DNA of 25,860 bases from a virus. Taxonomy: Duplodnaviria; Heunggongvirae; Uroviricota; Caudoviricetes. Location of the stretch: the IMG/VR virus record IMGVR_UViG_3300045988_049160. One strand, 5' to 3'. Under the pieces are notes generated by a model. That model made no database searches and had not been told where the DNA came from. It saw nothing but the letters and a program-made list of their open reading frames with translations. Positions within the stretch are counted from its first letter, which is position 1, and every line of letters starts with the position of its first letter. Shown here piece after piece: positions 939 to 20,704 of the stretch. Both the position numbers and the translations under genes were made by a program.

Positions 939-955
939 ATTACCTTTCGGGTAAT
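939..955. promoter_or_regulatory. Putative operator, inverted repeat ATTACC-TTTCG-GGTAAT (copy 1 of 5)
   Basis: Perfect 6-bp inverted half-sites with a 5-bp spacer, in the divergent intergenic region between the tailspike start (835) and the small antirepressor-like gene (1031). Confidence 0.45.
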
Positions 956-991
956 TTGCAAAACGTGCTGGATAGCAAACAAATTATTTGT

Positions 992-1011
992 TACTGTATA
1001 AACATACAGTT
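992..1011. promoter_or_regulatory. LexA (SOS) box, TACTGTATAAACATACAGTT
   Basis: CTGT-N8-ACAG with AT-rich spacer, close to the E. coli LexA consensus TACTGTATATATATACAGTA; sits about 20 bp upstream of the RBS/ATG of the 1031..1288 gene. Confidence 0.6.
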
Positions 1012-1030
1012 ATTGCATGGAGAAGATAAG

Positions 1031-1288
1031 ATGCAGCAGTATCACTATCCACTGGAAGACGGATTTACCGAAAGGATTCACACGCCGGGAGGCGTCAGGT
1101 CACTGGTGGAGGGATCGCACTTGATGAAATTACTCCGGGATCTCGATAAGGATGGATTTAATGTCGATGGCCCACTTGCCGAACTGACTGCACTGATTAA
1201 CTACGTCACCAGCTCACAGATGTCTATGCAGGATCTGCAAACACATCTCGACTATTGTGCCGAACAATTACGAAAACAAACCCGGTAA
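1031..1288 (+). CDS. Small (85 aa) antirepressor-like protein, paralogous to the C-terminal domain of the Bro-N antirepressor at 2435..3127; putative SOS-inducible antirepressor
   Basis: Internal ATG at 1031 preceded by GGAGAAG RBS; the annotated 908 start would put the operator and LexA box inside the coding sequence. IHTPGGVRSLVEGSHLMKLLRDLDKDGFNVDGPLAELTALINYV...DLQTHLDYCAEQL aligns by eye with IHSPSGVLGLTENSLLMNLLNQLQDDGHDVSGAAAELTTMFCYI...DIQTHAEYINDK of the larger protein. Confidence 0.55.
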   Translation: MQQYHYPLEDGFTERIHTPGGVRSLVEGSHLMKLLRDLDKDGFNVDGPLAELTALINYVTSSQMSMQDLQTHLDYCAEQLRKQTR

Positions 1289-1294
1289 ATTTAA

Positions 1295-1312
1295 AGGCCG
1301 CAAGAGCGGCCT
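1295..1312. terminator. Hairpin AGGCCGC-AAGA-GCGGCCT between convergent genes, likely bidirectional terminator (stronger for the minus strand)
   Basis: 7-bp GC-rich stem; on the minus strand it is followed by TTTAAATTT; overlaps the stop codon of the 1311..2039 gene. Confidence 0.4.
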
Positions 1313-2039
1313 ATCGTTTCGCTTTGTGCTCGTCCCAGCACGTTTTGCACCATGCCATTAAGCCGTCCGCATTTTGATTATTAGGGTAAAAGCTGGTCCG
1401 TTTTCTGCGGACATTACAAATTGGGCACCACTTCATATGGCGTGTATTCTTTGGGCCATCGAGACACCTTGCACACCACTTAGTCAATCCATCTGGATTT
1501 TTTGACGATTTCCGGAATTTGTCATATGGAAGGTTTATTCTGCATCGCAAACACTGCTTGCGGCCACTTGAAACTCTGTTAGCTGATTCTTCTTTTGGCG
1601 GCGATACAGAAGGTATTCTTGCTGGCTCTGATACTGCCTGAGGTGCTTTTTTAGATGACTGAGACGATATGTCATCACCAGGGAATCTTCCATGATATGC
1701 CGGACGCGTTGACACTCCAGGTGGAAGCTCAGCTGTAAACGGCTTTGGCTGAATCAGTTGCCTCTCTTTTGCTAACTCCTGCTGTTTATAATATGTCTGG
1801 ATTACCGCACTATCATAAGCAGGAGGTGCGGAAATATTAGGCGCATTACCTCCAGTTTTTTGAAACTGAGTAGAGGTGTGTTCTATCACCTGTGTACGAT
1901 TAATCGTTATCTCCCCATCTTCGGTCTTTATCGTTTTGTTATGATTAACGACCGTACGATCAGAGATCTTAGTCTTGTTCTGGTTGATAACGTAAATAAT
2001 CACCGCAACCACACCAACAACTATCCAGAAAACTTCCAT
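1311..2039 (-). CDS. Membrane-anchored protein with N-terminal transmembrane helix, Pro-rich linker and two tandem C4 zinc-ribbon repeats; function unknown
   Basis: 242-aa ORF; N-terminus MEVFWIVVGVVAVIIYVI is hydrophobic; C-terminus has two Cys-x2-Cys pairs repeated twice (CLRC...NPDGLTKWCARC and CPIC...NADGLMAWCKTC). GAGGAAAA RBS upstream of the ATG at 2039. Confidence 0.5.
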   Translation of the reverse strand: MEVFWIVVGVVAVIIYVINQNKTKISDRTVVNHNKTIKTEDGEITINRTQVIEHTSTQFQKTGGNAPNISAPPAYDSAVIQTYYKQQELAKERQLIQPKPFTAELPPGVSTRPAYHGRFPGDDISSQSSKKAPQAVSEPARIPSVSPPKEESANRVSSGRKQCLRCRINLPYDKFRKSSKNPDGLTKWCARCLDGPKNTRHMKWCPICNVRRKRTSFYPNNQNADGLMAWCKTCWDEHKAKR

Positions 2040-2058
2040 TGCTTTTCCTCACAATAAC

Positions 2059-2075
2059 ATTACCTTAAAGGTAAT
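2059..2075. promoter_or_regulatory. Putative operator ATTACC-TTAAA-GGTAAT (copy 2), perfect 17-bp inverted repeat
   Basis: Immediately upstream of the RBS of the minus-strand zinc-ribbon gene (ATG at 2039). Confidence 0.45.
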
Positions 2076-2152
2076 ATCTTGCTTTCAGGTGATCAAGCGT
2101 TAAACGCAATCAACCAAATACGGTTGATTTTAATATTTCTTCGCGTTTATCA

Positions 2153-2169
2153 TTACCTTTGCGGTAAAT
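2153..2169. promoter_or_regulatory. Putative operator ATTACC-TTTGC-GGTAAA (copy 3)
   Basis: Directly downstream of a -35/-10-like pair (TTGATT 2124-2129, 17-bp spacer), in the leader upstream of the antirepressor gene. Confidence 0.4.
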
Positions 2170-2434
2170 TTACATCGCACTCCTCTTGTGCCATAGTAAT
2201 CGGGCACTGGCAAAATCCAGTGCCGGGATTGGTCTCCCGGATTACTACAGAGGCACATATGCCGCATAAGCGGTTTTTTTATGTGTAAAGCGCACCTATT
2301 CTATGGTGGGCTGTGTGGGGGCACCGAAAGGTGCGCCGGGTTCCTTTGTAGCCGGTAAGACCAACTCTGCACAGTTCACCACCATCTGATTGGTCTCAGC
2401 GGTGGTGATTAACCTAACTACAAAGGTGATCGCT

Positions 2435-3127
2435 ATGAATACCAAACCTTCCATCTTTTCCTTTGAGTCATCCTGCCAGATCCGTATGTTCATGATTGAC
2501 GGAGAACCTTGGTTTGTCACCAAAGATGTGTGCAATGCTTTGAATATTGATGTTACACAAGCGAGAAAACTTGATAAAAAAGGCTGGAACAAAAAGGGGC
2601 TGTATTCAATACAGACCCCTGGTGGAATACAAGAACTATCCATCGTTTCAGAATCAGGTCTCTACATCCTTATTCTGCGTTGCAAAGAGGCAATGACTGA
2701 GGGAACGAGAGCATTCAGATTTCTTGAATGGGTTACAGGTGAGGTTCTTCCTCAGATCCGCCGCACCGGAAGTTACATTAAAAACTCGCTCCCGCAGGAA
2801 GAACGCATAAAGATGGTTGCCGACCAGGTAGCCAACGCCACGGCGTCAGCAGTAATGCAGGCAATGAAGATAGAGAACAAAACCTACAGTGCCCCGCTGA
2901 AGCCCGGCTACCGCAGCCTGATTCATTCGCCGTCTGGTGTTCTCGGCCTGACGGAGAACTCACTGCTGATGAATCTGCTGAACCAGTTACAGGACGACGG
3001 GCACGACGTATCGGGCGCGGCGGCGGAGCTGACCACCATGTTCTGCTACATCGTCGGTGTGAGCAAATGCCTGCGTGATATCCAGACCCACGCGGAGTAT
3101 ATCAACGACAAAGCAGGGTTCTTCTGA
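2435..3127 (+). CDS. Phage antirepressor-like protein with Bro-N N-terminal domain
   Basis: ATG at 2435 with AGGTGA RBS; N-terminal region FESSCQIRMFMIDGEPWFVTKDVCNALNI...GGIQELSIVSESGLYILILRCKEA matches the remembered Bro-N/antirepressor pattern; C-terminal domain duplicated in the 1031..1288 protein. Confidence 0.6.
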   Translation: MNTKPSIFSFESSCQIRMFMIDGEPWFVTKDVCNALNIDVTQARKLDKKGWNKKGLYSIQTPGGIQELSIVSESGLYILILRCKEAMTEGTRAFRFLEWVTGEVLPQIRRTGSYIKNSLPQEERIKMVADQVANATASAVMQAMKIENKTYSAPLKPGYRSLIHSPSGVLGLTENSLLMNLLNQLQDDGHDVSGAAAELTTMFCYIVGVSKCLRDIQTHAEYINDKAGFF

Positions 3128-3211
3128 CGAGCGGCGGCACATGGATGTGCCTACAATTATCAATAATTGTTTACACTCGTTGCAGTTAAAAGCATTATAC
3201 TCATGTTTAAA

Positions 3212-3228
3212 ATTACCCGATTGGTAAA
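3212..3228. promoter_or_regulatory. Putative operator ATTACC-CGATT-GGTAAA (copy 4)
   Basis: Lies between a TTTACA -35-like hexamer (3170-3175) and the RBS/ATG of the 3249 gene. Confidence 0.4.
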
Positions 3229-3248
3229 GTCGATTGGTTGAGGTTCAT

Positions 3249-3575
3249 ATGAGCAGAAGATATGTCAAGGAGCTGGCTATAGAGTCTGGCACCCCTTTGG
3301 GTATCGTTCCTGGCTCCAACTATGCCAAGGCTTTAAACCGAGACTCTGTCGTCAAAGTTATATCAAGAGACATGAATATGGTCGGAGACGATCTCAGACG
3401 GTCAGAAAATCGTGTTTATGCTGAATATATAGTAAAGAACGGAAAAAAAATTGCAGCGCCTGCTGGCGGAAAATGGGCAATAGTGACAGGGAAAAACTCA
3501 AATGCAAGAGGAAAACCAGAAGCTAAAGGAATGTCCTTCGACAAATATGCAAAAATCTATTGGGCAACCAAGTGA
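3249..3575 (+). CDS. Hypothetical protein (108 aa), first gene of a small operator-controlled operon
   Basis: ATG at 3249 with GAGG RBS 5 nt upstream (the track start at 3234 is a TTG). No recognisable motif. Confidence 0.45.
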   Translation: MSRRYVKELAIESGTPLGIVPGSNYAKALNRDSVVKVISRDMNMVGDDLRRSENRVYAEYIVKNGKKIAAPAGGKWAIVTGKNSNARGKPEAKGMSFDKYAKIYWATK

Positions 3576-4050
3576 TAACGAAGAAACTGAGTTCGAGGAA
3601 GTTGAGGAAGGGCTAAGTAACGAGATCATTCAACACCCAGATGCCTTCACAAGAGTTCTTGATCGCCCTGAAATTCAGGAGATAGTTGTCGCTCACCATG
3701 CGTTTCAGGGTCCGCTTCCTCCCCCCTATCTGCTTCGCGGGTATCAGGATATTTTACCTGATGCCCCCGAACGCATCTTCCAGCTGACGGAGAAGGAGTT
3801 TGCTCACCGCCAGAAAATGGAGGAAAAGGCACTTGACGGGGCTATTAATAGAGATAAACGTGGGCAGTGGTTTGGCCTGAGTGCAACTATTTTTACAGTA
3901 GCTTGTGCAACATTATTAGGTTTAACAGGTCATGAAGTTCTAGCTGGCACAGTGATCGGTACAGTTGTTGCAGTGGCTGGTATTTTCGTTCTTAGACAAA
4001 AACCAAGCATCAAGAAGAAATCTGAAGACAACAAACCTGAAGAAAAGTAA
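3502..4050 (+). CDS. Membrane protein, DUF2335-like (two C-terminal transmembrane helices); start uncertain (3502 or 3547)
   Basis: ORF overlaps the preceding gene in another frame; motif GPLPPPYLLRGYQDILPDAPERIF...EKEFAHRQKMEEKALDGAINRDKRGQWFGL followed by hydrophobic segments fits remembered DUF2335 phage membrane proteins. Confidence 0.45.
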   Translation: MQEENQKLKECPSTNMQKSIGQPSDNEETEFEEVEEGLSNEIIQHPDAFTRVLDRPEIQEIVVAHHAFQGPLPPPYLLRGYQDILPDAPERIFQLTEKEFAHRQKMEEKALDGAINRDKRGQWFGLSATIFTVACATLLGLTGHEVLAGTVIGTVVAVAGIFVLRQKPSIKKKSEDNKPEEK

Positions 4051-4071
4051 GCCCGCGCTGCGGGCTTTTTT
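4049..4071 (+). terminator. Rho-independent terminator (GCCCGC-GCT-GCGGGC followed by TTTTTT)
   Basis: GC-rich stem immediately after the stop codon at 4048-4050, followed by a T6 run. Confidence 0.6.
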
Positions 4072-4143
4072 GTGGACGAAACAAAAGTCAGTGCTACACT
4101 CATTGACGCCACATTGAGGTGGCTTATAGATGGAAATGTCACA

Positions 4144-4305
4144 ATGAAAAAAGCATTTGCTGCACTGTTCGTTTTGTTGTCTCTGGTAGCTTCAACTCAG
4201 GCCTTTGCCGGTCGTTGTCAGCACGACAGCGATACTGCCGCTGACGGCTCCCGCTGCGGTGGGCGTTCTGCGGATTCCCGCCCGGGCGGCGGTGGCATTC
4301 GTTAA
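4144..4305 (+). CDS. Small secreted peptide (53-aa precursor; predicted signal peptide MKKAFAALFVLLSLVASTQAFA; about 31-aa mature peptide with two Cys and Gly/Arg-rich tail)
   Basis: Internal ATG at 4144 of the 4072..4305 ORF; promoter-like TTGACG-17-ATAGAT upstream; own terminator downstream. Confidence 0.4.
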   Translation: MKKAFAALFVLLSLVASTQAFAGRCQHDSDTAADGSRCGGRSADSRPGGGGIR

Positions 4306-4327
4306 AAACAAGGCCGCGAAAGCGGCC
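4306..4327 (-). terminator. Rho-independent terminator ending the minus-strand late operon (hairpin GGCCGC-GAAA-GCGGCC, T-run on minus strand)
   Basis: Perfect 6-bp stem with GAAA loop at 4312-4327; the minus strand then reads TTGTTTTTAAC. Confidence 0.6.
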
Positions 4328-4328
4328 T

Positions 4329-4340
4329 GTGACATGTCAC
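4329..4340. repeat. 12-bp perfect palindrome GTGACATGTCAC (copy 1 of 4), overlapping the lipoprotein stop codon and adjacent to the terminator
   Basis: Exact sequence; identical copies at 21728-21739, 22120-22131 and 24386-24397. Confidence 0.8.
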
Positions 4341-4717
4341 GCAACGCAATTATTACCGCGCCATGTAACATTTTTAATAATCTTATCAGCACCAAACTCA
4401 ACGTAAACAGAGCAACTGAAATGGAGTGTATAACCGCCATCAGTTGTTGCGTATGTGTTTGAATATATAGTATTACCAATTAGATTAGACGTAGTATTAT
4501 ACGTTGTGGTTTGTGGTACGTTATAACTACCAGAGCTTGAGTAAACATACACTCTGTTTCCATCTGGAGATGTAAGCTCTCCCTGAGGATACCCCCACTG
4601 CTGAACCATTGCGTCTATACTCTGCCCGCGCCACGTAAGCATATTTCTTTCAAACTGTGCAGCTGACTGGCATCCAACGAGAAGCATAAATCCAAAAATC
4701 AAAAATACTTTTCTCAT
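4337..4717 (-). CDS. Lipoprotein (lipobox LLVGC), Thr/Ser/Tyr-rich mature domain; function unknown (candidate exclusion or lysis-associated lipoprotein)
   Basis: Internal ATG at 4717 gives MRKVFLIFGFMLLVGCQSA..., a classic signal peptide plus lipobox Cys; last gene before the operon terminator. Confidence 0.55.
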   Translation of the reverse strand: MRKVFLIFGFMLLVGCQSAAQFERNMLTWRGQSIDAMVQQWGYPQGELTSPDGNRVYVYSSSGSYNVPQTTTYNTTSNLIGNTIYSNTYATTDGGYTLHFSCSVYVEFGADKIIKNVTWRGNNCVA

Positions 4718-4802
4718 AATTACCCCTATCATGGAAAAACAGCACCAATCCACAAATTAACTAGTTATTTTATTATTCTTCCGAACAATACAATTCCGAA
4801 TA

Positions 4803-4925
4803 CTACAAAGCCGAACCATGCCGCTGCACGCAACAGAGATTCCAATTGAAACCCATTTTTATCAAAATGTATGAATAGCATAAAAACGCTGCACATATTA
4901 GTACAATAAAAGTTATTTGAACCAT
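4803..4925 (-). CDS. Small hydrophobic peptide (about 40 aa, one predicted transmembrane helix); alternative to the 62-aa ORF called in another frame
   Basis: ATG at 4925 (and 4928) is preceded by AAAAGGAG; translation MVQITFIVLICAAFLCYSYILIKMGFNWNLCCVQRHGSAL. The track ORF 4765..4953 has no RBS for any of its Met codons. Confidence 0.3.
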   Translation of the reverse strand: MVQITFIVLICAAFLCYSYILIKMGFNWNLCCVQRHGSAL

Positions 4926-4936
4926 CATATCTCCTT

Positions 4937-7411
4937 TTATTGCGGAGTGACATCCTGTGGTCGCCACCAGTATGTCTGGTTAAACTCTTTCTTCGAACGT
5001 TGCTCCATTTTACGCAAATAGCCTGGTGAAAAATACTCCTGCATCTGGTTAAAGATCATGTGATCGAGAGCCGCCTTCAAGTACCAGAGATTCGCACCAG
5101 GCATCAAACCTTTCCCCAGCTTCACCAGATCACCACCAGTCTGCTCACTCTTCCCTTCCACAGCATTTAACGGTATGCCCTGAGCAATCTTCACTACGTC
5201 ATCAACCAGACCAGCTACCGGGCCAAGCATCGACGCCAGCGCGCCGCTTCCGTACCTAGTGTGATCTGACAATAAAAAGTCACCGTAAAGGCCAAGACCA
5301 CCACCTTTCAGTAGAGCACCAAGCCAGAATTTTGCGGCATCTTCTCCTGTCATCTCTCGAGGATTACGACCAGACGCAAGGTCGTTAAGTTGCTGCGACA
5401 AAGCGCCAAGAATGGTCGTACTGGCAATAAACGTCGCAATATATGCCGCACGCCCACCAGCAGACGGCATACCCATAGCGCGTGACCAGTGACGCATAAC
5501 AACCGAGATAGGGAACGATTTAAACAGGAAAACACTTCTCGTTAATTCACCTTTCCATGTTCCACGCTGAATACCAGAACCGGTTATCAGTTGCTCACGT
5601 GCTCCCGGTGTAATAACAGCCATATCAACTTCTTCAGTTACGGCACCGAGCAGTTTACGCATTGCCTCAAATTTCACGCGTTCAGGCTCACCAAGATGTT
5701 TAACTGCTGAATCAGGGATACGCATAATGCTTTCCGGTGTCAGCATCGTATTATTACCGTTCCCCCAGTCCTCCTGTTTCGCCAGCTTCCATACGCTCCA
5801 GTCTGTGTCAGTAATCCCTTTGCTTTTCAGGATACGAAAATCAGAGTCATCGAGGCTACGAAGGTCTGGTGTCCGTGACACTACTTCTCCCAGGCTTCCC
5901 ATCATGGTTACGCCATAGGCGCGCTTGTGCGCATCTGACCATGCTGTAAGCCCACTGGCACGCATTACCGCCGTTGCCGCCCAACGAGACACTGACGGCC
6001 CCATATTATCCATCGCCCAGCGGTTAACGCTGCCAAGTAGAGATTCCATCGCCAGACCAGCGCGGCGCGCCCGCGCAAGTTCTGTACGGTTCGTTGGGTC
6101 CATAGCTTCAAGCTGGTTGCGGAATAACTGGTTCATTGGAAGGTTGGTAACCTTCGCAGACAGATACATGGTTCCAAGATCAGAGAACGATGACAGCAAC
6201 GCGGATCCGAGTCTGCTGGCAACCAGCCAGTTGCGGATATTGTCAGACCATCGCGCGATGTGCGGATTCGCTACAGGCTGTGTCTTTCCGGAAATAAAGT
6301 TGTACAGATTCTCTGTGTTGTTCGCCAGCCGCTCGACTTTACCGGTTTTACTCGGGTTAGCTGTTGCCGTTTCTGCCTTCACCTGATCAAGAAGAGAGCG
6401 GAAAACATGATCGGGGTTTGGGCCATATGTTTCCACCAGTGCAATATCTTTACTGATACCTTCCAGGTGACCGACCATGATTTCCCATAGAGAGCGATCG
6501 CCATAAAGTTGCTGATATTGCAGATAGGAATCTGCATCTTTGAAATGTATCTGTCGTGATGCATTACCACGGTTAGCACGTGCGCCGGAAATTCGCATTC
6601 CGGTATCAGTAAGCTTATTCAGCCCACCAGTAGCGATCGTGTTATAAGCCTCTCCAAGAAATGAAGACAACTCGGCATCGTTCATCAGTTGTCCATCGGC
6701 TCGGATATAATATTTGCGATCCAGCTTACCTATAACATCGCTAACCCACTTATCCTTTGATACTGCCCCAACCTTTTCCATAGAATGATGTTGAGGGATC
6801 CCCCAGTTTTCGAGATAGCCAATGTCCCCACCAGCATCATTAAACCGGCGGCGCAGCAGCTCTGTAACTTCTCTCCACGCCTTAGCACCGTTTCTTGCTT
6901 TAGCATTGCCAGTATTTTGCCCCCGCATTTCATATACCAGGTCACGTACGCCCGCTTCATCTTCAAACAGACCAAAAAAGCGAGGATCAACTGCTTCGAA
7001 TGCCTCCTGCAATTGACTCAATGCATAATCACGGGTGGCTTTTGTTCTGGATTCAACAGAGAGGAAATTAGATTTACCGTCTGCATTAAAAGCTATAGTA
7101 CGGTTAAGAGCGCCAAGTTTCCCATCAGCCCCTTGATAGCTATTGATAAATTTATCCAATCTCTGACGCGCGGCTATAGTGAGAGCCACACGACGTTTCT
7201 TTAATGCCGCTTCTCGCTGTAATTCTTCAGATGCCAATTGTGCTGCTCGATATAGCCGCTCTGATTCGGAAAGTTGTCGCCACGACATAGGGTCATCACG
7301 AGCAATGGAGCGCATATTTCGATAAATGCGGTCTTCAATGTTCTGTATTTCTCGCGCCGTTAACATGCGCTGCGCCGCCTGCTGAACCGCTTGTATACAT
7401 TCCTGTCTCAT
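4937..7411 (-). CDS. Internal virion / DNA-ejection protein, C-terminal region resembling T7 gp16 (internal virion protein D)
   Basis: 824-aa ORF, translationally coupled to the upstream gene; C-terminal segment VFLFKSFPISVVMRHW...ALSQQLNDL...GPVAGLVDDV resembles the remembered T7 gp16 C-terminus (VMQFKSFTIKSLNSKF...). Confidence 0.5.
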   Translation of the reverse strand: MRQECIQAVQQAAQRMLTAREIQNIEDRIYRNMRSIARDDPMSWRQLSESERLYRAAQLASEELQREAALKKRRVALTIAARQRLDKFINSYQGADGKLGALNRTIAFNADGKSNFLSVESRTKATRDYALSQLQEAFEAVDPRFFGLFEDEAGVRDLVYEMRGQNTGNAKARNGAKAWREVTELLRRRFNDAGGDIGYLENWGIPQHHSMEKVGAVSKDKWVSDVIGKLDRKYYIRADGQLMNDAELSSFLGEAYNTIATGGLNKLTDTGMRISGARANRGNASRQIHFKDADSYLQYQQLYGDRSLWEIMVGHLEGISKDIALVETYGPNPDHVFRSLLDQVKAETATANPSKTGKVERLANNTENLYNFISGKTQPVANPHIARWSDNIRNWLVASRLGSALLSSFSDLGTMYLSAKVTNLPMNQLFRNQLEAMDPTNRTELARARRAGLAMESLLGSVNRWAMDNMGPSVSRWAATAVMRASGLTAWSDAHKRAYGVTMMGSLGEVVSRTPDLRSLDDSDFRILKSKGITDTDWSVWKLAKQEDWGNGNNTMLTPESIMRIPDSAVKHLGEPERVKFEAMRKLLGAVTEEVDMAVITPGAREQLITGSGIQRGTWKGELTRSVFLFKSFPISVVMRHWSRAMGMPSAGGRAAYIATFIASTTILGALSQQLNDLASGRNPREMTGEDAAKFWLGALLKGGGLGLYGDFLLSDHTRYGSGALASMLGPVAGLVDDVVKIAQGIPLNAVEGKSEQTGGDLVKLGKGLMPGANLWYLKAALDHMIFNQMQEYFSPGYLRKMEQRSKKEFNQTYWWRPQDVTPQ

Positions 7412-7416
7412 TTAAT

Positions 7417-9219
7417 TTAACCTCTCAAGAAACACGCCACAGCGACATCAAACAGGCTGGAATCCTGTATTGCCTGCTCACTTTCCCTGTTCGCTTCATC
7501 CAGTGCTTCACGCGCACTGCGCGATTGTGGATTACCATCATCATCCAGCACGGTGATTATCATGTCCGGAGATTCAAGCAGCGAGTCTTCAGCTATACGC
7601 AGATCAATATCTCCTGCCGGATCTGCCATCATTTTTTGTTCTGTCTGTTGCAATATCTTACCGGGCTCAAAAGGAGCTACTTCGTCTGGCGTCCTGACCT
7701 CTGCTGTTTTATAGAATGAAACAGCCTGAGTATTAAGTTCACTTTCAGCCTGCTGTCTCCGTGCCAGTTCTGCTCGAGCTTCAAAAAACTGACCGCCAGG
7801 CTCATGCGGTGCCAACGCGTTACGAGAAAATTCCAGGCGTTCTTGTGCCTGCCGGATTCGTTGGTCAATATCGCGAAGTCTGGCCTGTTTATCTGATCGA
7901 GCACGAGATAAAGCCTTACCGCTACCGGCTGGATCTTCTGCAAGAATTTGTGCGCGCTGTTCAGTGAGATTTTCAATAATTCGTTGGCTATTAGCGATTT
8001 CAGACTGGTAAACCTGTCTATCGCCACGCGGCAAAAGCTGCGCGGCCTGTTCTTCAAGCAACCGATTTTCTATAGCGCGCGCCGTTACTCCATCATCTAC
8101 AGATGACAGAGCCTCATTAACTGCCTGAGACAGCAGACTCTTGCGTCCAGGAATTTCACTGAAAGATGCAGACTCAACAATGCTGGCAACGTCTACAGGT
8201 CTCCCCTGGCTAACATCAGACATGGCTTTTCGCAGAGCCTGAATGTGCGAATTACGCGAAAGCACGTTGATCGGCACGCCGGGAGCAATATCAATTTCAG
8301 CATGATGAGCGGCATTCGCCGCCAGTGCAGCATCGATATCAACTGGTGAAAAATTTGGTGCGCTTGTAGACTCGCCGCGAGAGTTAATAAATCTGCCGAC
8401 ACCACCAAACGCCACCCCAAGAACAGCATCAATAGCAATTGCCTGTCGATCCAACACATCATACTGGTTAGCCATTTCGCTATAGCCACCATCACGAAGC
8501 GTTTTTGCAGTAAGCCCACGCTGTGCCATACCGAACGCAATATTTGTACCTGCGGCATAGGCAATATCTGGCGTTGCACGTACTGCTGTTGCTGCGGCGC
8601 GTCGCACTGAACTTTCACCCGTCCGCGCAAGCTGAGCCGCCACACCTTCCGCCAGCGCACCACCAGCACGTAACCCGAGGCTCATAGGGATCAGTGTTCC
8701 GGCACCAGCAGTAATACCCTGCACTAATCCCGCTTCCTGCGCCGTCCTGAAATCAACACCCTGTGCTGTCAGCCGTTCAAACTCAGAAAAACCCTGTAGA
8801 GAAGTTACCGCCGCAGCACCTCCGACCGGACCACCGAGCGTTGTACCGACAACAGCCTGCCCGCCCATATCGAACAACCCATAAAGAACCTGCCCGGCGG
8901 TTCCGGTTGTCGCGGCATCAGGCGTCAGCCGCTTAACCTGCTGTTCTGCTAGTTTTCTCTGCTCGGCAATGTATGAAACTGAAGTATCATTGAGCGAGGT
9001 GTTTTCGTTAATAAACTGAGCAATCGGGGATACGATTTTATCCATCCCTGCCCATAGCAACTGATCTGGCTTTGCCACCAGCCCGGAGTACAAACCAGAC
9101 AATGCCGCTCCTACAGCATTGTCGAAAAAACCAACATCGCTGTTAAAGCCCGCTGGATTTGATGCTGCTTCGTCAAGCTGCTGATTCTGGTTTACTGGAT
9201 TAAGGCCAAAGTAACTCAT
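7417..9219 (-). CDS. Internal virion / ejection protein (Gly/Ala-rich, 600 aa)
   Basis: ATG overlaps the upstream stop (ATGA); position between the gp14-like and gp16-like genes; Gly/Ala-rich composition. Confidence 0.4.
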   Translation of the reverse strand: MSYFGLNPVNQNQQLDEAASNPAGFNSDVGFFDNAVGAALSGLYSGLVAKPDQLLWAGMDKIVSPIAQFINENTSLNDTSVSYIAEQRKLAEQQVKRLTPDAATTGTAGQVLYGLFDMGGQAVVGTTLGGPVGGAAAVTSLQGFSEFERLTAQGVDFRTAQEAGLVQGITAGAGTLIPMSLGLRAGGALAEGVAAQLARTGESSVRRAAATAVRATPDIAYAAGTNIAFGMAQRGLTAKTLRDGGYSEMANQYDVLDRQAIAIDAVLGVAFGGVGRFINSRGESTSAPNFSPVDIDAALAANAAHHAEIDIAPGVPINVLSRNSHIQALRKAMSDVSQGRPVDVASIVESASFSEIPGRKSLLSQAVNEALSSVDDGVTARAIENRLLEEQAAQLLPRGDRQVYQSEIANSQRIIENLTEQRAQILAEDPAGSGKALSRARSDKQARLRDIDQRIRQAQERLEFSRNALAPHEPGGQFFEARAELARRQQAESELNTQAVSFYKTAEVRTPDEVAPFEPGKILQQTEQKMMADPAGDIDLRIAEDSLLESPDMIITVLDDDGNPQSRSAREALDEANRESEQAIQDSSLFDVAVACFLRG

Positions 9220-11729: not shown

Positions 11730-12274
11730 TATAATCCTCCGGGTAATCTGGTTCCTGCTGCTGCCCCGATTGGCGCAGGAGTGCTTTGAGTAAACGGACT
11801 CCACGTCCCACCAAACATCTGGTACGCACCGTATGCCTTCAGAGGCGCAGTGAGCAATGTTGTTGCTGCTCCCACATTCCCCTGTTTACGGGCTGAACTG
11901 GCTTCTGCTTTATAGTTGGCAGCCTGAACCTGATAACCGTAAGCCTCGCGTTGCGCGTTATTCACCGTCGTCAGCGAATCAAGAGCGCCAAACTGGGCAG
12001 TGTCGCCAAATATATCCAGCGCGTTACCTGTAGATAAATCAGCGCCGGTAGCCCCCATTGTCGCCGCCTGTGTACCAAGCCGCTGTCGGGTCTCTCTGCG
12101 TCGTTGCTCAGCTTCAGCGTTACCTCTGTTTATTGCATCATTTGCCTGAGCTGTGGCTATATCTGCGTTCGCTTCTGCAACCTTCGAGGCATACTTTCCC
12201 TGTTGGTACTGGGTGTATGCCTGAATGCCACTCATGGCGAGCATTGCGCCACCAGCAATAACCGGATCGCACAT
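11729..12274 (-). CDS. Internal virion protein, T7 gp14-like (internal virion protein B)
   Basis: 181 aa, starts MCDPVIAGGAMLAMSGIQAY... and is Ala/Gln-rich like remembered T7 gp14 (MCWAAAIPIAISGAQAISGQ...); conserved position after the tail tubular genes. Confidence 0.45.
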   Translation of the reverse strand: MCDPVIAGGAMLAMSGIQAYTQYQQGKYASKVAEANADIATAQANDAINRGNAEAEQRRRETRQRLGTQAATMGATGADLSTGNALDIFGDTAQFGALDSLTTVNNAQREAYGYQVQAANYKAEASSARKQGNVGAATTLLTAPLKAYGAYQMFGGTWSPFTQSTPAPIGAAAGTRLPGGL

Positions 12275-12738
12275 TATTTTCTCTCCATGTGAAATCTGTG
12301 GAAATTAAGACCAAGAGCACCATAAGGCGCGGCTTCTTCAAGCCTGAATCCAAGCCAGTGCAGCCATGCTTTGGCAACATGGTTTCGCTCGTCGACATAG
12401 TTTTCCAGGCGCGGATAAACTGCCAGCATCTGCTGCAATACAGGGCGGCAGTGGCGAAGAAATGTCTTCTGATATTTTTCGATACGGCTGGTTCCGACCA
12501 GCCAGGGCGTACCATTGCCACCGATCATTGACGCCGGAGATACGCCAAACATGGTTACCAGTTCTCCGTTCGCGAACCCTGACCAGGCCATAGTCGCAGT
12601 ACGCAGACCAACACGCAGCGCATCTTTGGTAGTCATCAGCGATACCGCATACAGTTCGTCAATATCAGCCTGACGAACATCCGGCAAAATCATCTGAAGA
12701 TGCTCTTCGGTAGCGGGAATAATTTGAACATCGATCAT
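12274..12738 (-). CDS. Small virion-associated protein in the gp13 position (internal virion protein A-like), 154 aa
   Basis: Translationally coupled on both sides; call by gene order only. Confidence 0.3.
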   Translation of the reverse strand: MIDVQIIPATEEHLQMILPDVRQADIDELYAVSLMTTKDALRVGLRTATMAWSGFANGELVTMFGVSPASMIGGNGTPWLVGTSRIEKYQKTFLRHCRPVLQQMLAVYPRLENYVDERNHVAKAWLHWLGFRLEEAAPYGALGLNFHRFHMERK

Positions 12739-15209: not shown

Positions 15210-15814
15210 CAGGACAACCTCGCAATGGTAAACTCGTCAACCGGTGGCTGTGGTTCCTGTGATTCATTCTGGCTATGCGAGCCAGCACTAAGAATCACGC
15301 GATTGTACATATTGAGAGCAAATGTACCGAGATCCGCATTCCCAGTCAGCGCCATGTTAATGGCTGCCGCAAGACGCCAGGCCAGCGCCTCCATAAAAAT
15401 GGCATCAAACATGTTTACATCTGAAACGCGAGAGACATACTTGAGCCATGCCTGCGGCTGGTCTGTGTAGATCAATTTTCCTGTTCCGTTGGTGTCTGCA
15501 CCAACTTCGTACTGAACGCGCATTGCTGCTGTTGGATTGCGTACACCAGGAAGCATAATTTCAGTAATGCGCAGACAATCTGACGGGTACTGGTACGCAT
15601 ATTCCCAGTCAGGCGGTGGATTGCTCGTATCTGCAAGCGCCACGCGTTTGGTAGCAAAGTTCCAGTCAAAATCAGAAAGCACAGCATCACGGCAGGCCTC
15701 AAAGTGCAGCGAACATTCCCCCGCTTCCTTGCTGGCTTCCGTCAGGCTGTTAATGCTGCGGCTGTTGCCAATATTGGACAGCGCACGATTGCAGATCTCT
15801 ACTACAGAGGCCAT
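15209..15814 (-). CDS. Tail tubular protein A (T7 gp11-like), 201 aa
   Basis: N-terminus MASVVEICNRALSNIGNSRSINSLTE resembles remembered T7 gp11 (VNDILASIGEPPVSTLEG); size about 200 aa; conserved order before gp12. Confidence 0.5.
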   Translation of the reverse strand: MASVVEICNRALSNIGNSRSINSLTEASKEAGECSLHFEACRDAVLSDFDWNFATKRVALADTSNPPPDWEYAYQYPSDCLRITEIMLPGVRNPTAAMRVQYEVGADTNGTGKLIYTDQPQAWLKYVSRVSDVNMFDAIFMEALAWRLAAAINMALTGNADLGTFALNMYNRVILSAGSHSQNESQEPQPPVDEFTIARLS

Positions 15815-15824
15815 AAGTTTCTAT

Positions 15825-15848
15825 ACTCCTGCAATAAAGGGGCCGAAG
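15825..15848 (-). terminator. Attenuator / partial terminator between head and tail genes (hairpin GGGGC-UUCG-GCCCC then UUUAUU on the minus strand)
   Basis: 5-bp G/C stem with UUCG tetraloop at 15835-15848 followed by a U-rich tract, in the 56-bp gap between the 114-aa gene and the gp11-like gene. Confidence 0.4.
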
Positions 15849-15870
15849 CCCCTTGTCTGATTCGCGAGGC

Positions 15871-16215
15871 TTACACGCCCAGTTCTTTACGCTTATCTGC
15901 GATCTTCTCGCGTAGCGTTTCGGCTTTGGCGTTATGGTGTGGCTTCTCGTTAAAGAGCAATTCGTACTCTTCACGGAGCTTATCCAGTTCACCATCATCT
16001 GACACATCGTTGATGATTTTGGTGCTGGTTGCTGCCATTGACACCTTTCCTGCAACTTTTGCTTTTGCCTGTCTGGCTGCATCGTTAACAGGTTCCAGTG
16101 CGCTACCAGGCTCACCTTCGTATTCGATTTCTGCCCCCTCCGGCCACAGAGTGTTATGGATATGAGAGAGGCGCAGAACGCGGTATCTTGGTTTCTCACC
16201 TGACATCGATATCAC
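15871..16215 (-). CDS. Hypothetical small virion/morphogenesis protein (114 aa)
   Basis: Start adjoins the upstream stop; lies between capsid-associated genes and the tail tubular genes. Confidence 0.4.
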   Translation of the reverse strand: MISMSGEKPRYRVLRLSHIHNTLWPEGAEIEYEGEPGSALEPVNDAARQAKAKVAGKVSMAATSTKIINDVSDDGELDKLREEYELLFNEKPHHNAKAETLREKIADKRKELGV

Positions 16216-16216
16216 C

Positions 16217-16654
16217 TTAACCAGTTACTTTTGAGCGGATCGGGTACGGCGTATTGGCATCAACATCCAGACTGATACCCGCAGTGAATTTGCCAGCCGT
16301 TAGTGGGCCAGTTGCGACGGAGTAGTTAACACGCAGATATCGCTGAACACCGGCAGGCACCTTTGCAGAAACAACTCGTTTACCTGCTGTCAGGGCGGTC
16401 TTTGCCAGTGCGCCACTATCATAAATAGTGGTCCATGAGCTGTTATTCTCACTCGTCTGCAACTGGATGTTTACAGTTGCATCACCGCTTGCCGCGGCGG
16501 CTGCGTTAACCAGCGCCCAAAACTCAAGCGGGTAACCCACGCCGATATCACGACGTTTTCCGTCAATTGGACCGAGATCGATTACGTCAGTAGAAGCCGC
16601 GGTATTCGTAACCGCCTGAGCTTCGGAGAACATCAACAGTTTGTCGGTGATCAT
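16217..16654 (-). CDS. Putative capsid decoration / minor capsid protein (145 aa)
   Basis: Immediately downstream of the major capsid gene; Ala/Thr/Gly-rich; call is positional only. Confidence 0.3.
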   Translation of the reverse strand: MITDKLLMFSEAQAVTNTAASTDVIDLGPIDGKRRDIGVGYPLEFWALVNAAAAASGDATVNIQLQTSENNSSWTTIYDSGALAKTALTAGKRVVSAKVPAGVQRYLRVNYSVATGPLTAGKFTAGISLDVDANTPYPIRSKVTG

Positions 16655-16705
16655 CTTCTTTCTCCATTAGTGGGTCTGTTACGACCCACAGGTTAATAAC
16701 AGGCG

Positions 16706-17698
16706 TTACACCACGCGGGCTTCTGTTTCCAGAAGCGCATCAGTTTCACGGATTGGTACACCACGGAATGAAGTCCACCACTCGCCTTCAGTCTCTTTTA
16801 CGCTGATAGCCAGAGATGTTTTCTCCAGAGATTGCAGATCAAGAGCCTGGCCTACAGTGCGGTTCATGTAGAACACCGGGCGGCCCATGCCACGGTTTGG
16901 AATGCGATGTAGTGCTTTAACCATCAACTTCGCAATATTTGCGGCAGAGGATGGTTCTGAAATATTGCTGACATCGATGTTTGCAATGCGAACAACATAA
17001 CGCCAGTCACGCAGAGCAAGTCCGTTATCCCATTTGTAATGGGTGCGATAGCCTTCGTACTTGCCGCCATTAGCATCTTCCAGTGTCACCTGGCCTTTAT
17101 CTTCCATCTGGATGCCAGCCTTCTGCCCTTTCGGGAAGATGCCATGCACGGTGTTTTCGCCCCACACCACTAACCAGATTGAGGTGTTATCTGTACCCGT
17201 GCCACCAGCATCAATGATGTTCTGAGCATTACCCGCAGACAGGCTGGAATAGCGGGAGGACAGTCCCATAAACTGCTGAGGGTTAACGCTGGAATCACCA
17301 TAAAACAGCGTCTGCGCCATCTGCTGATTCATCGCTTCAATAAATGCGCGGTCTTCAGACAGGCGGAATTCGGCGGTATTGCCGTTCAGATCAGCCAGTG
17401 ACTTATCGACTTCCGCATAGGTTTCCAGCATGCCAACGGAATCGGTTACCTGCACTGTGGTTGATTTGCTTGGCTGTACGCCATAGTTCAGCAAACGCCA
17501 GGTAGCTGAAGGTAAACCAGAACGAATGGTGGTTCGGTGTCCGGTAGGAAGGTTCCCTTCGACAAAAGGCATATCCTGAAGGATCGGGTTAGTTTGACCG
17601 AGAAGCTCGATAATCTTATCGACTTTCCCGTTTGGATCGACGCGCTTACCCCAGTCAGCCAGCGTTAGCGCAGTTAAGCCTTTAACAGCCATTGTCAT
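16706..17698 (-). CDS. Major capsid protein (330 aa)
   Basis: Follows the acidic scaffold gene with a GAGAGGAA RBS; size and order portal-scaffold-capsid. Confidence 0.6.
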   Translation of the reverse strand: MTMAVKGLTALTLADWGKRVDPNGKVDKIIELLGQTNPILQDMPFVEGNLPTGHRTTIRSGLPSATWRLLNYGVQPSKSTTVQVTDSVGMLETYAEVDKSLADLNGNTAEFRLSEDRAFIEAMNQQMAQTLFYGDSSVNPQQFMGLSSRYSSLSAGNAQNIIDAGGTGTDNTSIWLVVWGENTVHGIFPKGQKAGIQMEDKGQVTLEDANGGKYEGYRTHYKWDNGLALRDWRYVVRIANIDVSNISEPSSAANIAKLMVKALHRIPNRGMGRPVFYMNRTVGQALDLQSLEKTSLAISVKETEGEWWTSFRGVPIRETDALLETEARVV

Positions 17699-17706
17699 TT
17701 CCTCTC

Positions 17707-18408
17707 TTATTTGCCATAGAGCACTTCGGCCGCACTACGCTGGCCTTCATTACCACCGGTGACCATGCCATCTTCAGACATCGCCTTTCCGATTTTCACG
17801 AACGTTTTGACCAGATCAGGGTGATTACCCAGCCCGGTGGTGTTCAGATATTCTTTGAGTTCAGGTGTCCCGAACTGGTCAAGCGCACGCTGTGCGGCGC
17901 TAAGGTTAGAAATCAACTTGTCGCCACCGATTTCTTTGTCGGCTTTTACATCCGCTGCCCACTGCTCGGTTGTTTTCTGCCAGGCTTCTGCCTGGCGCTG
18001 CTGAACACCTGCCAGAATCTTCGGATAAGCATCAACCAGCTTTTGCGCTTGCTCGTTGGTCAGGTTTAGTTCTCGCGCCACCGGCTCGAATTCCTTCAAC
18101 GCTTCTGTATCCAGCTCTACGCCTTCGGCAGCCTGAAACTCGTACTTTTCAGGCGCACCCTCTGGTTTATCGCCGTCCTTTTTTTCATCCTGCTTATCGT
18201 TTTCAGGCTTTTTGTCATCAGCAGGTTTATCGCCATCAGCAACAGGTTGTGGCTTATCACCTTCCTGTTGTGATGGATCACCAACTGGAGCAGGGTTATC
18301 ACCTGCAGGCGCTGACGGTTCTGACGCAGCCGGAGCTGCTCCACCATCGACTGGTTGCTCATTGCAAAGACGGCGATACAGCAAACGCTCAAATAAATTC
18401 ATGATCAC
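17707..18408 (-). CDS. Scaffolding protein (acidic, low complexity, 233 aa)
   Basis: Highly acidic Pro/Asp/Lys-rich N-terminal half (DGDKPADDKKPENDKQDEKKDGDKPEG), located between portal and capsid. Confidence 0.5.
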   Translation of the reverse strand: MIMNLFERLLYRRLCNEQPVDGGAAPAASEPSAPAGDNPAPVGDPSQQEGDKPQPVADGDKPADDKKPENDKQDEKKDGDKPEGAPEKYEFQAAEGVELDTEALKEFEPVARELNLTNEQAQKLVDAYPKILAGVQQRQAEAWQKTTEQWAADVKADKEIGGDKLISNLSAAQRALDQFGTPELKEYLNTTGLGNHPDLVKTFVKIGKAMSEDGMVTGGNEGQRSAAEVLYGK

Positions 18409-18701
18409 TCCTGTTCACTGGCCTCTTTGGCCATCTTCAAATACTGTTCAGGGCAATGCGCCATAACGCGCTGAAACAGTTCCAGCGCCAGATTGCGTTG
18501 CCCCTCATTAAATGCCATTGCCATAGCGTCCATCGGTGAGATAGCGGAAAACACACGGCCTTTCTCCAGCACCGACCAGACAACGCGACGCCCCTGTTCA
18601 CTGCTCATGACAAAGCAAATGTCATCAATTTCACGCTGTGCCATGTCACGTTGCTTACGGGCGTTTTCTTCTTTCAGTTGATCGTCTTCGTAATCTGTCA
18701 T
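18405..18701 (-). CDS. Hypothetical head-assembly-associated protein (98 aa)
   Basis: Translationally coupled between portal and scaffold. Confidence 0.4.
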   Translation of the reverse strand: MTDYEDDQLKEENARKQRDMAQREIDDICFVMSSEQGRRVVWSVLEKGRVFSAISPMDAMAMAFNEGQRNLALELFQRVMAHCPEQYLKMAKEASEQE

Positions 18702-20377
18702 TGTGATTGCCCACCCTGACCACTAACTGCATTCGCCATAGCTGACAAAACACTCGGATCCGAAGTTTTAGCTTCGCTTAGCGTCTTGGCACCCTGTGCC
18801 GCCGCCATCCCCATCGCCATCATTTGTTGCTGCTGTTGTTGCTGTGCCCGTTGCTGGCGAGCCTGCTCAACCTGTTCCTGCGGAACAATGACGGTTGGAG
18901 ACACTCCGGACATATCAGCGAATGCATCGATCGCCTGATCAACGTTGAGTTTGTCGAGAGCTTCTGGTTTCGCTTGCGCAAGTTGACCAATGAAGTTGAC
19001 CGTAGACGCCAGACTGGACAGGCCGATAGACTTCTGCGCCTGAGCCATGACGGAAATGTATTCGACCTTCAGGGGCATACCTTCCATCGCGTCAGGCGGT
19101 GGCGGCAGCATGTTTTTACGCACCATCATCGAGAAAGCGCGGTCAATGAGAGGATTAAGACATTCGTCGTTCAGACGCTCCAGAACCGGCCCCAACATCA
19201 GAAGTTTTTCTTCTTTCATTTCGATCACCGCTTCAACAGGCATCGAGCGGGTATTGATGTTCTGCAACATCATGAACAGATCGACAAAGTAGGCGCTGTT
19301 AATGATTTGACGGGTGTCCTGAATGTCTGCCACCAAATCTGCTGTACTGGGGTTAACCAGATAAGCAGGCCTGAAACCATCCTGACCAGTAATCTGATCG
19401 ATATACGTGATGTCGCCAGGAAGAAGGGAGGCACGCTGATTCTTGAGGGAAGTCGGAGCAACCATCGGCGGATTGGTGGCTTTATCAATCAACTGCGACT
19501 TGCGCTTCTGGAGAAGCTGCAATGCCTTAACAGGTCCAAGCGCCAGCATACCCGGGCATGATGATCCATAAACATCTTCGCCGTTAACTTCCCAGCGCGG
19601 AGCCATAATTGGAAACTCATCGAATCCGGACTCACGCAACAACTTGTCGTTATCGCCACCAACCTCGTAATAAACCGATTTGAATGGCTTGTTCTTGCTA
19701 TCCAGCTTCGATGTATCGCGGTCAATGTTCGGGTAAACCGAATGCATCACTTCAATCCACTTCTCGTAGGTTCCGCTTTCCCACATGCTTTTTACGGATT
19801 CGCTGACGTTATTTAGCCCGAACTCCTGAACAAGCTGACGAACAGTCATAGAGAACTTGCGAAAACAGGTGTCCACACTGCCACGAGGTGAGTTAGCCAG
19901 GTAGTAACTGCCTATCGGGAATGGCATTGTGCGAATGATGTCCTCGTCATCCTCCAGCACTGCCATTGCACCAGTGCTGTATGTGCCGAGGCTTCCGTAT
20001 AACTGCGGCAGCGACTGATAGAGATTCGACTTATTGAACATATCGTTCATGCGGTTCTGCACCGCCTCAAGCCACAACTTAACAGGGCCATAATCCATCA
20101 TTTCAGGATCTGGCGTAGCCAGGCGAAACCACGGACGCGCGGGGCTTGTGATGCCTGACATCATGCCGCTGGCGAGAGTGCGCGCCGCCATAGTCCCGGT
20201 CGAATCAATAATGCGTGTATTGCGTCGATCGTTACGGTTGACCTCAGAAGTCAGAAAGCGGGAACCACGCGGGTTGATGTAATCACTCAACTCGCGCCAG
20301 TGCGGCTCGAACGACTGACGCTCGCTTTCAAGTTGTGCGAACTGTTTGTTCAATCGCTCTTTAGTTGTTTCCGCCAT
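18698..20377 (-). CDS. Portal (head-to-tail connector) protein, T7 gp8-like
   Basis: 559 aa; N-terminal region LNKQFAQLESERQSFEPHWRELSDYINP...TGTMAARTLASGMMSGITSPARPWFRL parallels remembered T7 gp8 (YERLKNDRAPYETRAQNCAQY...VGARGLNNLASKLMLALFPMQTWMRL); Gln-rich C-terminus QQRAQQQQQQQMMAMGMAAAQG also gp8-like. Confidence 0.75.
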   Translation of the reverse strand: MAETTKERLNKQFAQLESERQSFEPHWRELSDYINPRGSRFLTSEVNRNDRRNTRIIDSTGTMAARTLASGMMSGITSPARPWFRLATPDPEMMDYGPVKLWLEAVQNRMNDMFNKSNLYQSLPQLYGSLGTYSTGAMAVLEDDEDIIRTMPFPIGSYYLANSPRGSVDTCFRKFSMTVRQLVQEFGLNNVSESVKSMWESGTYEKWIEVMHSVYPNIDRDTSKLDSKNKPFKSVYYEVGGDNDKLLRESGFDEFPIMAPRWEVNGEDVYGSSCPGMLALGPVKALQLLQKRKSQLIDKATNPPMVAPTSLKNQRASLLPGDITYIDQITGQDGFRPAYLVNPSTADLVADIQDTRQIINSAYFVDLFMMLQNINTRSMPVEAVIEMKEEKLLMLGPVLERLNDECLNPLIDRAFSMMVRKNMLPPPPDAMEGMPLKVEYISVMAQAQKSIGLSSLASTVNFIGQLAQAKPEALDKLNVDQAIDAFADMSGVSPTVIVPQEQVEQARQQRAQQQQQQQMMAMGMAAAQGAKTLSEAKTSDPSVLSAMANAVSGQGGQSQ

Positions 20378-20391
20378 TTCAATGACTCCGG

Positions 20392-20598
20392 TTACTGACC
20401 AAGCAGCGTTTTACCGCTGGTATTAGCGGTTGATGTGTCGCCCTGAGAACCGGTAAGCAGCGTAGAACTACGACCAGCAGCAGCGCGACGGCGACGAGTT
20501 TCTTCGTCGCGGGCATCAACAACGGCGGCATCCTGCTCCTGTGGTGCTGCCTGAACTTCTGGTGTTGCAGGCACTGATGGTGAGCTACCCATGCACAT
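20392..20598 (-). CDS. Small Ser/Thr/Arg-rich virion protein, T7 gp6.7-like (68 aa)
   Basis: Starts MCMGSSPSVPAT..., basic and Ser/Thr-rich, directly upstream of portal; GGAG RBS; chosen over the overlapping 20379..20618 frame. Confidence 0.35.
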   Translation of the reverse strand: MCMGSSPSVPATPEVQAAPQEQDAAVVDARDEETRRRRAAAGRSSTLLTGSQGDTSTANTSGKTLLGQ

Positions 20599-20687
20599 AT
20601 CAATGACTCCGTACGCAATTAAATTATTACCAATTTAACCACATATGATTTATTTATCGTAGGTAGTTGACATTTAACGCACAAATT

Positions 20688-20704
20688 ATTACCTTTCAGG
20701 TAAC
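20688..20704. promoter_or_regulatory. Putative operator ATTACC-TTTCA-GGTAAC (copy 5)
   Basis: About 90 bp upstream of the gp6.7-like start, in the region where the structural operon must restart after the plus-strand moron insertion. Confidence 0.35.

Follow-up and report, generated by a model that had tools for sequence, protein, structure and literature searches.

Which protein reads a 17-bp inverted repeat that recurs in front of very different genes along one stretch of phage DNA, and what would it control there? The stretch, called the window here, is the 25,860-nt IMG/VR record IMGVR_UViG_3300045988_049160 (Caudoviricetes), and the element is the palindrome ATTACC-N5-GGTAAT. A sequence-only reading of the window had counted five copies with a fixed 5-bp spacer and ascribed them to a dimeric regulator controlling accessory cargo together with part of the late operon. 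In the reading favored here, to which we give a probability of about 0.9, the palindromes are operators of Rep, the master lysogeny repressor of the prophage and a homologue of epsilon15 gp38 and SPC32H Rep. The assignment is made because of the motif statistics, the annotation of the same sites in the epsilon15 genome, the arrays that flank rep in related phages, the orthologous placement of individual copies, and the presence in the window of the antirepressor partner Ant behind a LexA box.

Over about 80% of its length, the window shares 97-98% identity with phages phiv142-3 and phiV10, O157 typing phages 9 and 10, and PAS61, and it is about 76% identical to parts of Salmonella phage epsilon15. 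Among complete E. coli genomes, none is identical to the window, the closest match reaching 94% coverage at 98.3% identity. Judged by these identities, it is a phiV10/epsilon15-like podovirus prophage (genus Uetakevirus) of E. coli.

Copies of the palindrome in the window

A search of the full window for ATTACC-N5-GGTAAT, allowing at most two mismatches, gave eight matches, seven of which have no more than one mismatch. The copies at 939-955 and 2059-2075 are exact, and single mismatches are found at 2152-2168, 3212-3228, 20688-20704, 24274-24290, and 24292-24308. The five copies listed previously are therefore all present, four at the coordinates given and the third at 2152-2168 rather than 2153-2169, but the two tandem copies at the small-terminase gene, terS, had been missed. 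In 2000 dinucleotide-preserving shuffles, the expected numbers per window were 0.001 for exact copies and 0.035 for copies with up to one mismatch, against 2 and 7 observed, and not one of the shuffles reached the observed counts. When the same half-sites were searched with every spacer from 0 to 12 bp, all seven matches fell at 5 bp and none at any other length, in agreement with the earlier judgment that a motif with this invariant spacer lies far beyond chance. The placement of the copies also agrees with what had been claimed: all seven are intergenic and at promoters, in a window whose intergenic share, estimated from the map of open reading frames, is about 10%.

A 150-kb segment of E. 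coli chromosome outside the prophage served as the host control. It holds no exact copy and two copies with one mismatch, both of which lie inside genes by their coordinates (lolC and ykfM). The density at up to one mismatch is about 0.13 per 10 kb in this host DNA, compared with 2.3-3.1 per 10 kb across the window and the genomes of five related phages, such that neither shuffled nor unrelated DNA carries the motif at a density similar to that of the phage sequences. The motif set is real, and neither chance nor base composition explains its copies. These data bear directly on the proposal that the repeat is a host transcription factor site or a by-product of AT-rich promoter DNA. All copies do lie in AT-rich intergenic DNA, and the left half-site can double as a -10-like TACCTT, but the proposal is barely credible in light of the shuffles, the restriction to spacer 5, the near-empty and exclusively intragenic host control, and the confinement of the motif to Uetakevirus among the records examined.

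The eighth match, ATAATCCTCCGGGTAAT at 11731-11747, has two mismatches and is located within the coding region of a virion protein. It is kept in phiV10 and phiv142-3 and absent from epsilon15, and most likely arose by chance and was retained through coding constraint.

Repressor sites in related phages and the Rep-Ant pair

The RefSeq record of epsilon15 (NC_004775.2) contains seven features annotated as 'protein_bind, repressor, lysogeny', each with the exact sequence (A)TTACC-N5-GGTAAT. Three have orthologous counterparts in the window (Table 1), one ahead of terS, one ahead of gp3, and one between gp19 (ant) and the tailspike gene, and three others adjoin the repressor gene, gp38. This annotation predates the present analysis, and the copies in the accessory region of the window are new instances of a known element; the three of them add no more to the Rep regulon than cargo genes and an antirepressor operon, the isrK-C4-BRO unit described below. 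A full-text literature search for ATTACC/GGTAAT together with 'repressor' returned unrelated papers only.

Whole-genome scans of phiV10, phiv142-3, epsilon15, Tyrion, SPC32H, and a near-identical prophage at guaA in E. coli SY033 revealed 9-12 sites with up to one mismatch per phage genome. In all six, the motif stands on both sides of rep, with two to three copies per side, an arrangement that typically marks the operators belonging to an immunity repressor itself. Two or three sites are found downstream of rep, on the PL side, and one to three between rep and a divergent cro-like gene; further sites follow the cro-like gene, and a pair 62 bp apart precedes a gp45-type gene. Outside this region, the relatives carry a pair before terS and single sites ahead of gp3 and in the gap separating ant from the tailspike gene. 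A site with one mismatch is also located upstream of the lysis cassette in phiV10, epsilon15, Tyrion, and SPC32H, and the scans found none before the cassette of phiv142-3 or the SY033 prophage. The notion of a regulator dedicated to cargo is not tenable given that the sites flank rep in every relative examined and are annotated as repressor sites in epsilon15.

A symmetrised matrix of 47 unique sites shows positions 2-6 conserved at 94-100% and an A/T-biased spacer. In two alignments of seven phages (A1 and A2), the half-sites are invariant and the spacers and flanks diverge; A1 additionally retains TGCTGGATAG and the CTGT/ACAG arms of the LexA box without change, and at the 20688-20704 site A2 retains TTGACA along with the half-sites. 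The sites are thus non-random, conserved at orthologous places, matched to annotated repressor sites, and accompanied by homologues of Rep and Ant.

No Rep homologue is encoded in the window (best tblastn E = 1.6), as the earlier reading held of its regulator, but the conclusion that the protein could not be identified does not follow. Synteny with the SY033 prophage (L005) puts rep roughly 5 kb to the right of the window. The repressor of that prophage is 99% identical to phiV10 gp40 and aligns along its entire length with the crystallised SPC32H Rep (5d50_A, E = 3.5e-42). Overall identity between Reps of the phiV10/Tyrion type and those of the epsilon15/SPC32H type is only 42-43%, and both types have the same segment NLVNRW, without any change, in their N-terminal helix-turn-helix domain, which fits a half-site common to both. 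The window itself encodes the partner protein, Ant, behind a likely promoter (TGGATA 969-974, 17 bp, TACTGT 992-997) overlapped by the LexA box.

In SPC32H, ant is reportedly under LexA control, and Rep is said to be inactivated by Ant rather than cleaved with RecA. A review supports a LexA-controlled Ant and a Rep without RecA cleavage (PMC7380047). According to a secondary source, Rep binds palindromic DNA sites as a tetramer of two dimers, and Ant breaks the tetramer (PMC9638917); on this description, the simple dimeric regulator proposed earlier has to be given up. The earlier view of a protein operator of two symmetric half-sites that links accessory cargo with structural and late units is retained. 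Another source assigns the tetramerisation domain of Rep to a fold of the DNA-looping type (PMC9986798). In phage ZX5, the repressor of which is identical to that of phiV10, overexpression of the protein cut endolysin and holin transcripts by >99.9% (PMC9782041).

The same gene neighborhoods offer other candidates for the main binder. A Cro-like protein might occupy the sites to damp promoters during lytic growth: Cro and the repressor share operators in lambdoid switches, and a Cro-like gene (phrog_35, 'transcriptional repressor') adjoins rep, in divergent orientation, in the SY033 prophage. Alternatively, the binder could be the product of a phrog_536 'transcriptional regulator' gene located in the window just upstream of terS (24429-24734), beside the terS operators. 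We consider it unlikely, though worth serious attention, that either is the main binder. Cro-like binding would add a second protein without displacing Rep, the epsilon15 record credits the sites to the repressor, the invariant NLVNRW of Rep tracks the invariant half-site, and no link connects the phrog_536 protein with the motif.

Several points nevertheless weigh against Rep as the reader of these sites. The epsilon15 repressor sites are database annotations, and the basis for the operator sequence consists of GenBank features and secondary citations. For the rep gene, which falls outside the window, presence in the source genome is deduced from synteny. The same sites may also be bound by the Cro-like protein encoded next to rep. 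The operator at 939-955 and those near late-type promoters are upstream of the -35 element, which is not the classical position for occlusion, and the promoter assignments derive from consensus scans only.

Two further patterns emerged from the scans of the relatives. Directly ahead of the integrase gene, close to attP, every relative conserves a site with two mismatches, ATTACC-N5-GGTATA (L001 26869-26885, L002 39128-39144, L003 26881-26897, L004 28567-28583, L005 6734-6750, L006 26959-26975), which may be a weak operator through which Rep controls int. All relatives also have operator pairs at two early promoters, with a conserved centre-to-centre distance of 62 bp (L001 31952/32014 and 35069/35131; L003 32554/32616 and 35906/35968; L004 34194/34256 and 37264/37326). 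The window pairs are 93 bp (2059/2152) and 18 bp (24274/24292) apart. Such spacing is compatible with bridging of paired operators by one Rep tetramer.

Predicted promoter geometry and the units behind the operators

The features of the window are collected in Table 1. Promoters were assigned by consensus scans combined with our own reading of the sequence, and three geometries can be distinguished. In class A, the last 2 nt of the -10 hexamer fall within the operator, a configuration also read at PL and at the gp45-type promoter of relatives. In class B, a -35 element is followed by 15 nt and the operator, with a -10 TACCTT inside the left half-site. In class C, the operator precedes the -35 element. 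As far as the predicted elements go, classes A and B are consistent with RNA polymerase simply being occluded; class C would need another mechanism, such as interference with -35/UP contacts or bridging. The class C copy in the window, 939-955, is upstream of the -35 of both neighboring promoters and covers neither core promoter.

Table 1. Predicted operators, promoters, genes, and RNAs discussed in the text
Feature	Position	Strand	Setting or evidence	Promoter reading
Rep operator ATTACCTTTCGGGTAAT	939-955		between tailspike (835, -) and ant (1031, +); orthologous to epsilon15 19895-19911	class C; 14 bp from ant -35 (TGGATA), ~24 bp from weak tailspike-side promoter
LexA box TACTGTATAAACATACAGTT	992-1011	+	conserved in seven phages	overlaps likely ant -10
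Small antirepressor Ant	1031-1288	+	E = 4e-47 to PDB 5d50 chain E 'Anti-repressor protein'	
Cargo gene behind operator 2059-2075	1311-2039	-	membrane-anchored, Cys-rich (zinc-ribbon-like), 242 aa; phrog_6762	
Rep operator ATTACCTTAAAGGTAAT	2059-2075		20 bp upstream of ATG of gene 1311-2039 (-)	class B (-); TTGATC-N15-ATTACC; faces 242-aa Cys-rich membrane protein gene
Rep operator ATTACCTTTGCGGTAAA	2152-2168		head of isrK-C4-BRO antirepressor unit	class A; TTGATT(2124)-18-TATCAT(2153)
isrK	2204-2280	+	Rfam gathering-level match, 74.7 bits	
C4 antisense RNA	2299-2386	+	Rfam match, 78.6 bits (gathering score 45)	
Bro-N protein gene	2435-3127	+	Pfam Bro-N, E = 1.8e-13	
Rep operator ATTACCCGATTGGTAAA	3212-3228		21 bp upstream of ATG 3249	class A; TTAAAA(3186)-16-TAAAAT(3213)
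Cargo operon behind operator 3212-3228	3249-4050	+	108-aa protein of unknown function and DUF2335 membrane protein	
Rep operator ATTACCTTTCAGGTAAC	20688-20704		90 bp upstream of gp3-like ATG (20598, -); orthologous to epsilon15 2931-2947	class B (+); TTGACA-N17-TACCTT
tRNA-Arg(UCU)	21026-21102	+	downstream of Rep-overlapped promoter; followed by strong terminator 21146-21181	
Tandem Rep operators	24274-24290, 24292-24308		adjoin terS ATG (24272, -), downstream of terminator-like hairpin 24344-24327; orthologous to epsilon15 12-27	class A at distal operator; TACTAT, then TACC

These positions also allow the palindrome to be considered as RNA. As a hairpin in a 5' leader, with a 6-bp stem and a 5-nt loop, it could be the target of an RNA-binding protein or affect translation or stability, and the copies located 20-40 nt before start codons (3212-3228, 2059-2075, and 24274-24308) would indeed be transcribed if the -10 assignments are right. 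Copies upstream of a -35 element, in contrast, would not be transcribed (939-955 and the upstream partners at PL in relatives), and the tandem arrays flank rep like classical operator regions. The primary sequence of the arms is conserved rather than their complementarity alone, one-sided changes at the outer positions are common (e.g., ATTACC...GGTAAA), and a 6-bp A/U-rich stem is weak. The one-mismatch limit cannot reveal compensated arm changes; the symmetric forms GTTACC...GGTAAC and TTTACC...GGTAAA do occur at two mismatches and are predicted by the operator and hairpin models alike. Taken together, these considerations make a role as an RNA hairpin very improbable.

With the palindromes read as Rep operators, we infer the following picture of Rep binding, promoter use, and direction of control, site by site, for this prophage. 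In the lysogen, Rep, as a double helix-turn-helix protein, would place a pair of N-terminal domains on each ATTACC-N5-GGTAAT. It would block RNA polymerase where the site overlaps the -10 element or the transcription start, namely at 2059 (minus strand), 2152, 3212, and 20688 (plus strand), and probably also at the tandem pair before terS. At 939-955, Rep would act on -35/UP contacts or bridge to another operator. DNA damage would lead to cleavage of LexA and freeing of the ant promoter, upon which Ant would take Rep off the DNA and all Rep-controlled units would fire together: early operons outside the window, cargo, the isrK-C4-BRO unit, tRNA-Arg, and late units.

The cargo genes are situated in an accessory block (836-4950) between the tailspike gene and the virion genes. 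The product of 1311-2039 has weak zinc-ribbon and endonuclease VII-like matches, and its operator is also present in the SY033 prophage (L005 40869-40885). The operator of the 3249 operon reaches beyond E. coli: Klebsiella Uetakevirus BUCT711 keeps a copy, ATTACCGTATTGGTAAC (L010 1444-1460), before a homologue of the operon, with about 74% identity to the window downstream and a different upstream flank. In our reading of that sequence, a putative promoter, TTGACG-16-TAAGAT, overlaps the operator. Within the phage collection, operator-carrying cargo modules were found only in Uetakevirus records.

The third accessory operator heads a more elaborate unit, in which isrK and C4 follow one another between operator 2152-2168 and the Bro-N gene, that is, in the Bro-N leader. 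Weaker versions of the operator occupy the equivalent place in phiV10, phiv142-3, and Tyrion. Residues 149-222 of the Bro-N protein are 42% identical to the small Ant (BLASTP, E = 1e-15), and the protein is a candidate second antirepressor of the Rep-directed type. The prophage hence encodes two Ant-like proteins, one under LexA and the other under a Rep operator and the isrK and C4 RNAs.

The site at 20688-20704 had been viewed as the operator for a restart of the structural operon. That label is unproven because the promoter overlapped by the operator (TTGACA 20667-20672, TACCTT 20690-20695, plus strand) points at tRNA-Arg, away from gp3 and the portal gene. A sigma-70 scan of the gp3 side of this site and of the tailspike side of 939 found only weak -35 elements. 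Between the plus-strand promoter and the tRNA gene is a 324-nt non-coding leader (20702-21025) with a folding energy of -123.8 kcal/mol (z = -3.55 vs shuffles), in which an Rfam search at relaxed thresholds found no family besides tRNA. The epsilon15 record marks RNase III processing sites in the homologous stretch.

A second motif, ATATRTGGTT-N5-GGTAATA, is present on the minus strand at 888-909, facing the tailspike gene, and at 20625-20646, facing gp3 and the portal gene. The match is exact both here and in relatives of the phiV10 type, with at most one mismatch in epsilon15, SPC32H, and Tyrion, and in relatives the motif recurs, with three mismatches, facing the lysis cassette (L001 24740-24761, L003 24752-24773, L004 26456-26477, L006 24830-24851). 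Each copy is about 28-40 bp downstream of a Rep operator. By its sequence it looks like a late-promoter element with a weak -35, and the phrog_536 regulator is a candidate for its activator.

Relatives disagree in their annotation of where the small-terminase gene (23679-24353, minus strand), near the window's right end, begins. In its long form (phiV10, PGAP), the gene takes in both operators and the terminator-like hairpin. The short form, starting at ATG 24272 (epsilon15, phiv142-3), leaves the operators upstream, retains a complete Terminase_2 domain, and is the more plausible of the two. The operators themselves are present in phiV10, phiv142-3, Tyrion, and SPC32H. With the short start, terS (23679-24272) is followed on the minus strand by terL, the gp3-like gene (20392-20598), and the portal, capsid, and tail genes. 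Of the tailspike gene, which is of endosialidase type, only the 5' end is included (1-835, minus strand, start codon at 835); the tailspike of close relatives carries an 'endosialidase catalytic beta-propeller domain'. This suggests a K1-capsule-specific Uetakevirus prophage integrated at guaA. Sequence homologous to the left 4.9 kb of the window, comprising the tailspike end, antirepressor genes, and cargo, is found in 678 of 5426 complete genomes.

A broader scheme may be sketched, which we regard as possible though doubtful. Rep would be a genome-wide gatekeeper in the manner of P1 C1, directly governing all transcription units of the prophage, whether early, late, lysis, tRNA, or cargo, with a feed-forward loop in which LexA cleavage yields small Ant, small Ant releases Rep, and Rep release yields the BRO-Ant protein, and with single tetramers bridging paired operators. 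No description of such wiring for E. coli Uetakevirus prophages was found in the reachable literature.

The sites reveal neither a new regulator nor a new mechanism, and their value is mainly one of annotation. The Rep operator set of epsilon15 and SPC32H recurs in the phiV10-type prophages that are common in E. coli, and horizontally acquired prophage cargo comes with, or acquires, a Rep operator, as exemplified by the Cys-rich membrane protein gene, the DUF2335 operon, the tRNA-Arg unit, and the second antirepressor. Cargo of this kind would then stay off in lysogens and be expressed once the prophage is induced, which could help to predict the prophage genes that a lysogen expresses and to design expression tools controlled by Rep and Ant.

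Comparison with known repressor systems

The closest counterpart is epsilon15 itself (NC_004775.2; Kropinski et al. 2007, Virology 369:234), a member of the same genus with the same 17-bp consensus at orthologous positions. It differs in that seven sites are listed and no isrK-C4-BRO module is annotated; the window has three added sites (2059, 2152, and 3212) at modules that epsilon15 does not have, and Rep of the phiV10 type is only 42-43% identical to gp38. The Rep-Ant switch of SPC32H (Kim and Ryu 2013, J Virol; Kim et al. 2016, PNAS; PDB 5D50/5D4Z) provides the second reference point. The window shares the Ant homologue behind a LexA box and has the same motif at the same places, and a Rep homologue is encoded in the near-identical SY033 prophage. 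The differences from SPC32H are the host, E. coli rather than Salmonella, the divergent Rep allele, and the second, Bro-N-fused Ant-like protein. The biochemistry of the Rep-Ant pair was reportedly done on SPC32H only.

More distant likenesses extend to P1 and lambda. As with P1 C1, a master repressor would act through operators scattered over many transcription units, and as in P1 immI (c4-icd-ant under Op51), an operator of the primary repressor and a C4 RNA head an antirepressor operon; the immI-like layout is seen here with C4 upstream of the Bro-N/Ant-like gene and operator 2152-2168 at the predicted operon promoter, and it occurs in this case in a podovirus prophage. In place of a palindrome, P1 C1 recognizes an asymmetric 17-mer, ATTGCTCTAATAAATTT; C1 is not related to Rep; and in the unit described here, C4 is preceded by isrK. 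Because the operator and repressor types differ, the isrK-C4-BRO unit is best described as working like immI without being a member of the P1 family. The lambda OL/OR regions likewise consist of 17-bp pseudo-palindromes bound by helix-turn-helix repressors, in multiple copies that flank the repressor gene over PL and PR. Lambda operators are confined to the immunity region, whereas the Rep sites extend to late, cargo, and tRNA units, and Rep, unlike lambda CI, is reportedly inactivated by Ant instead of being cleaved with RecA.

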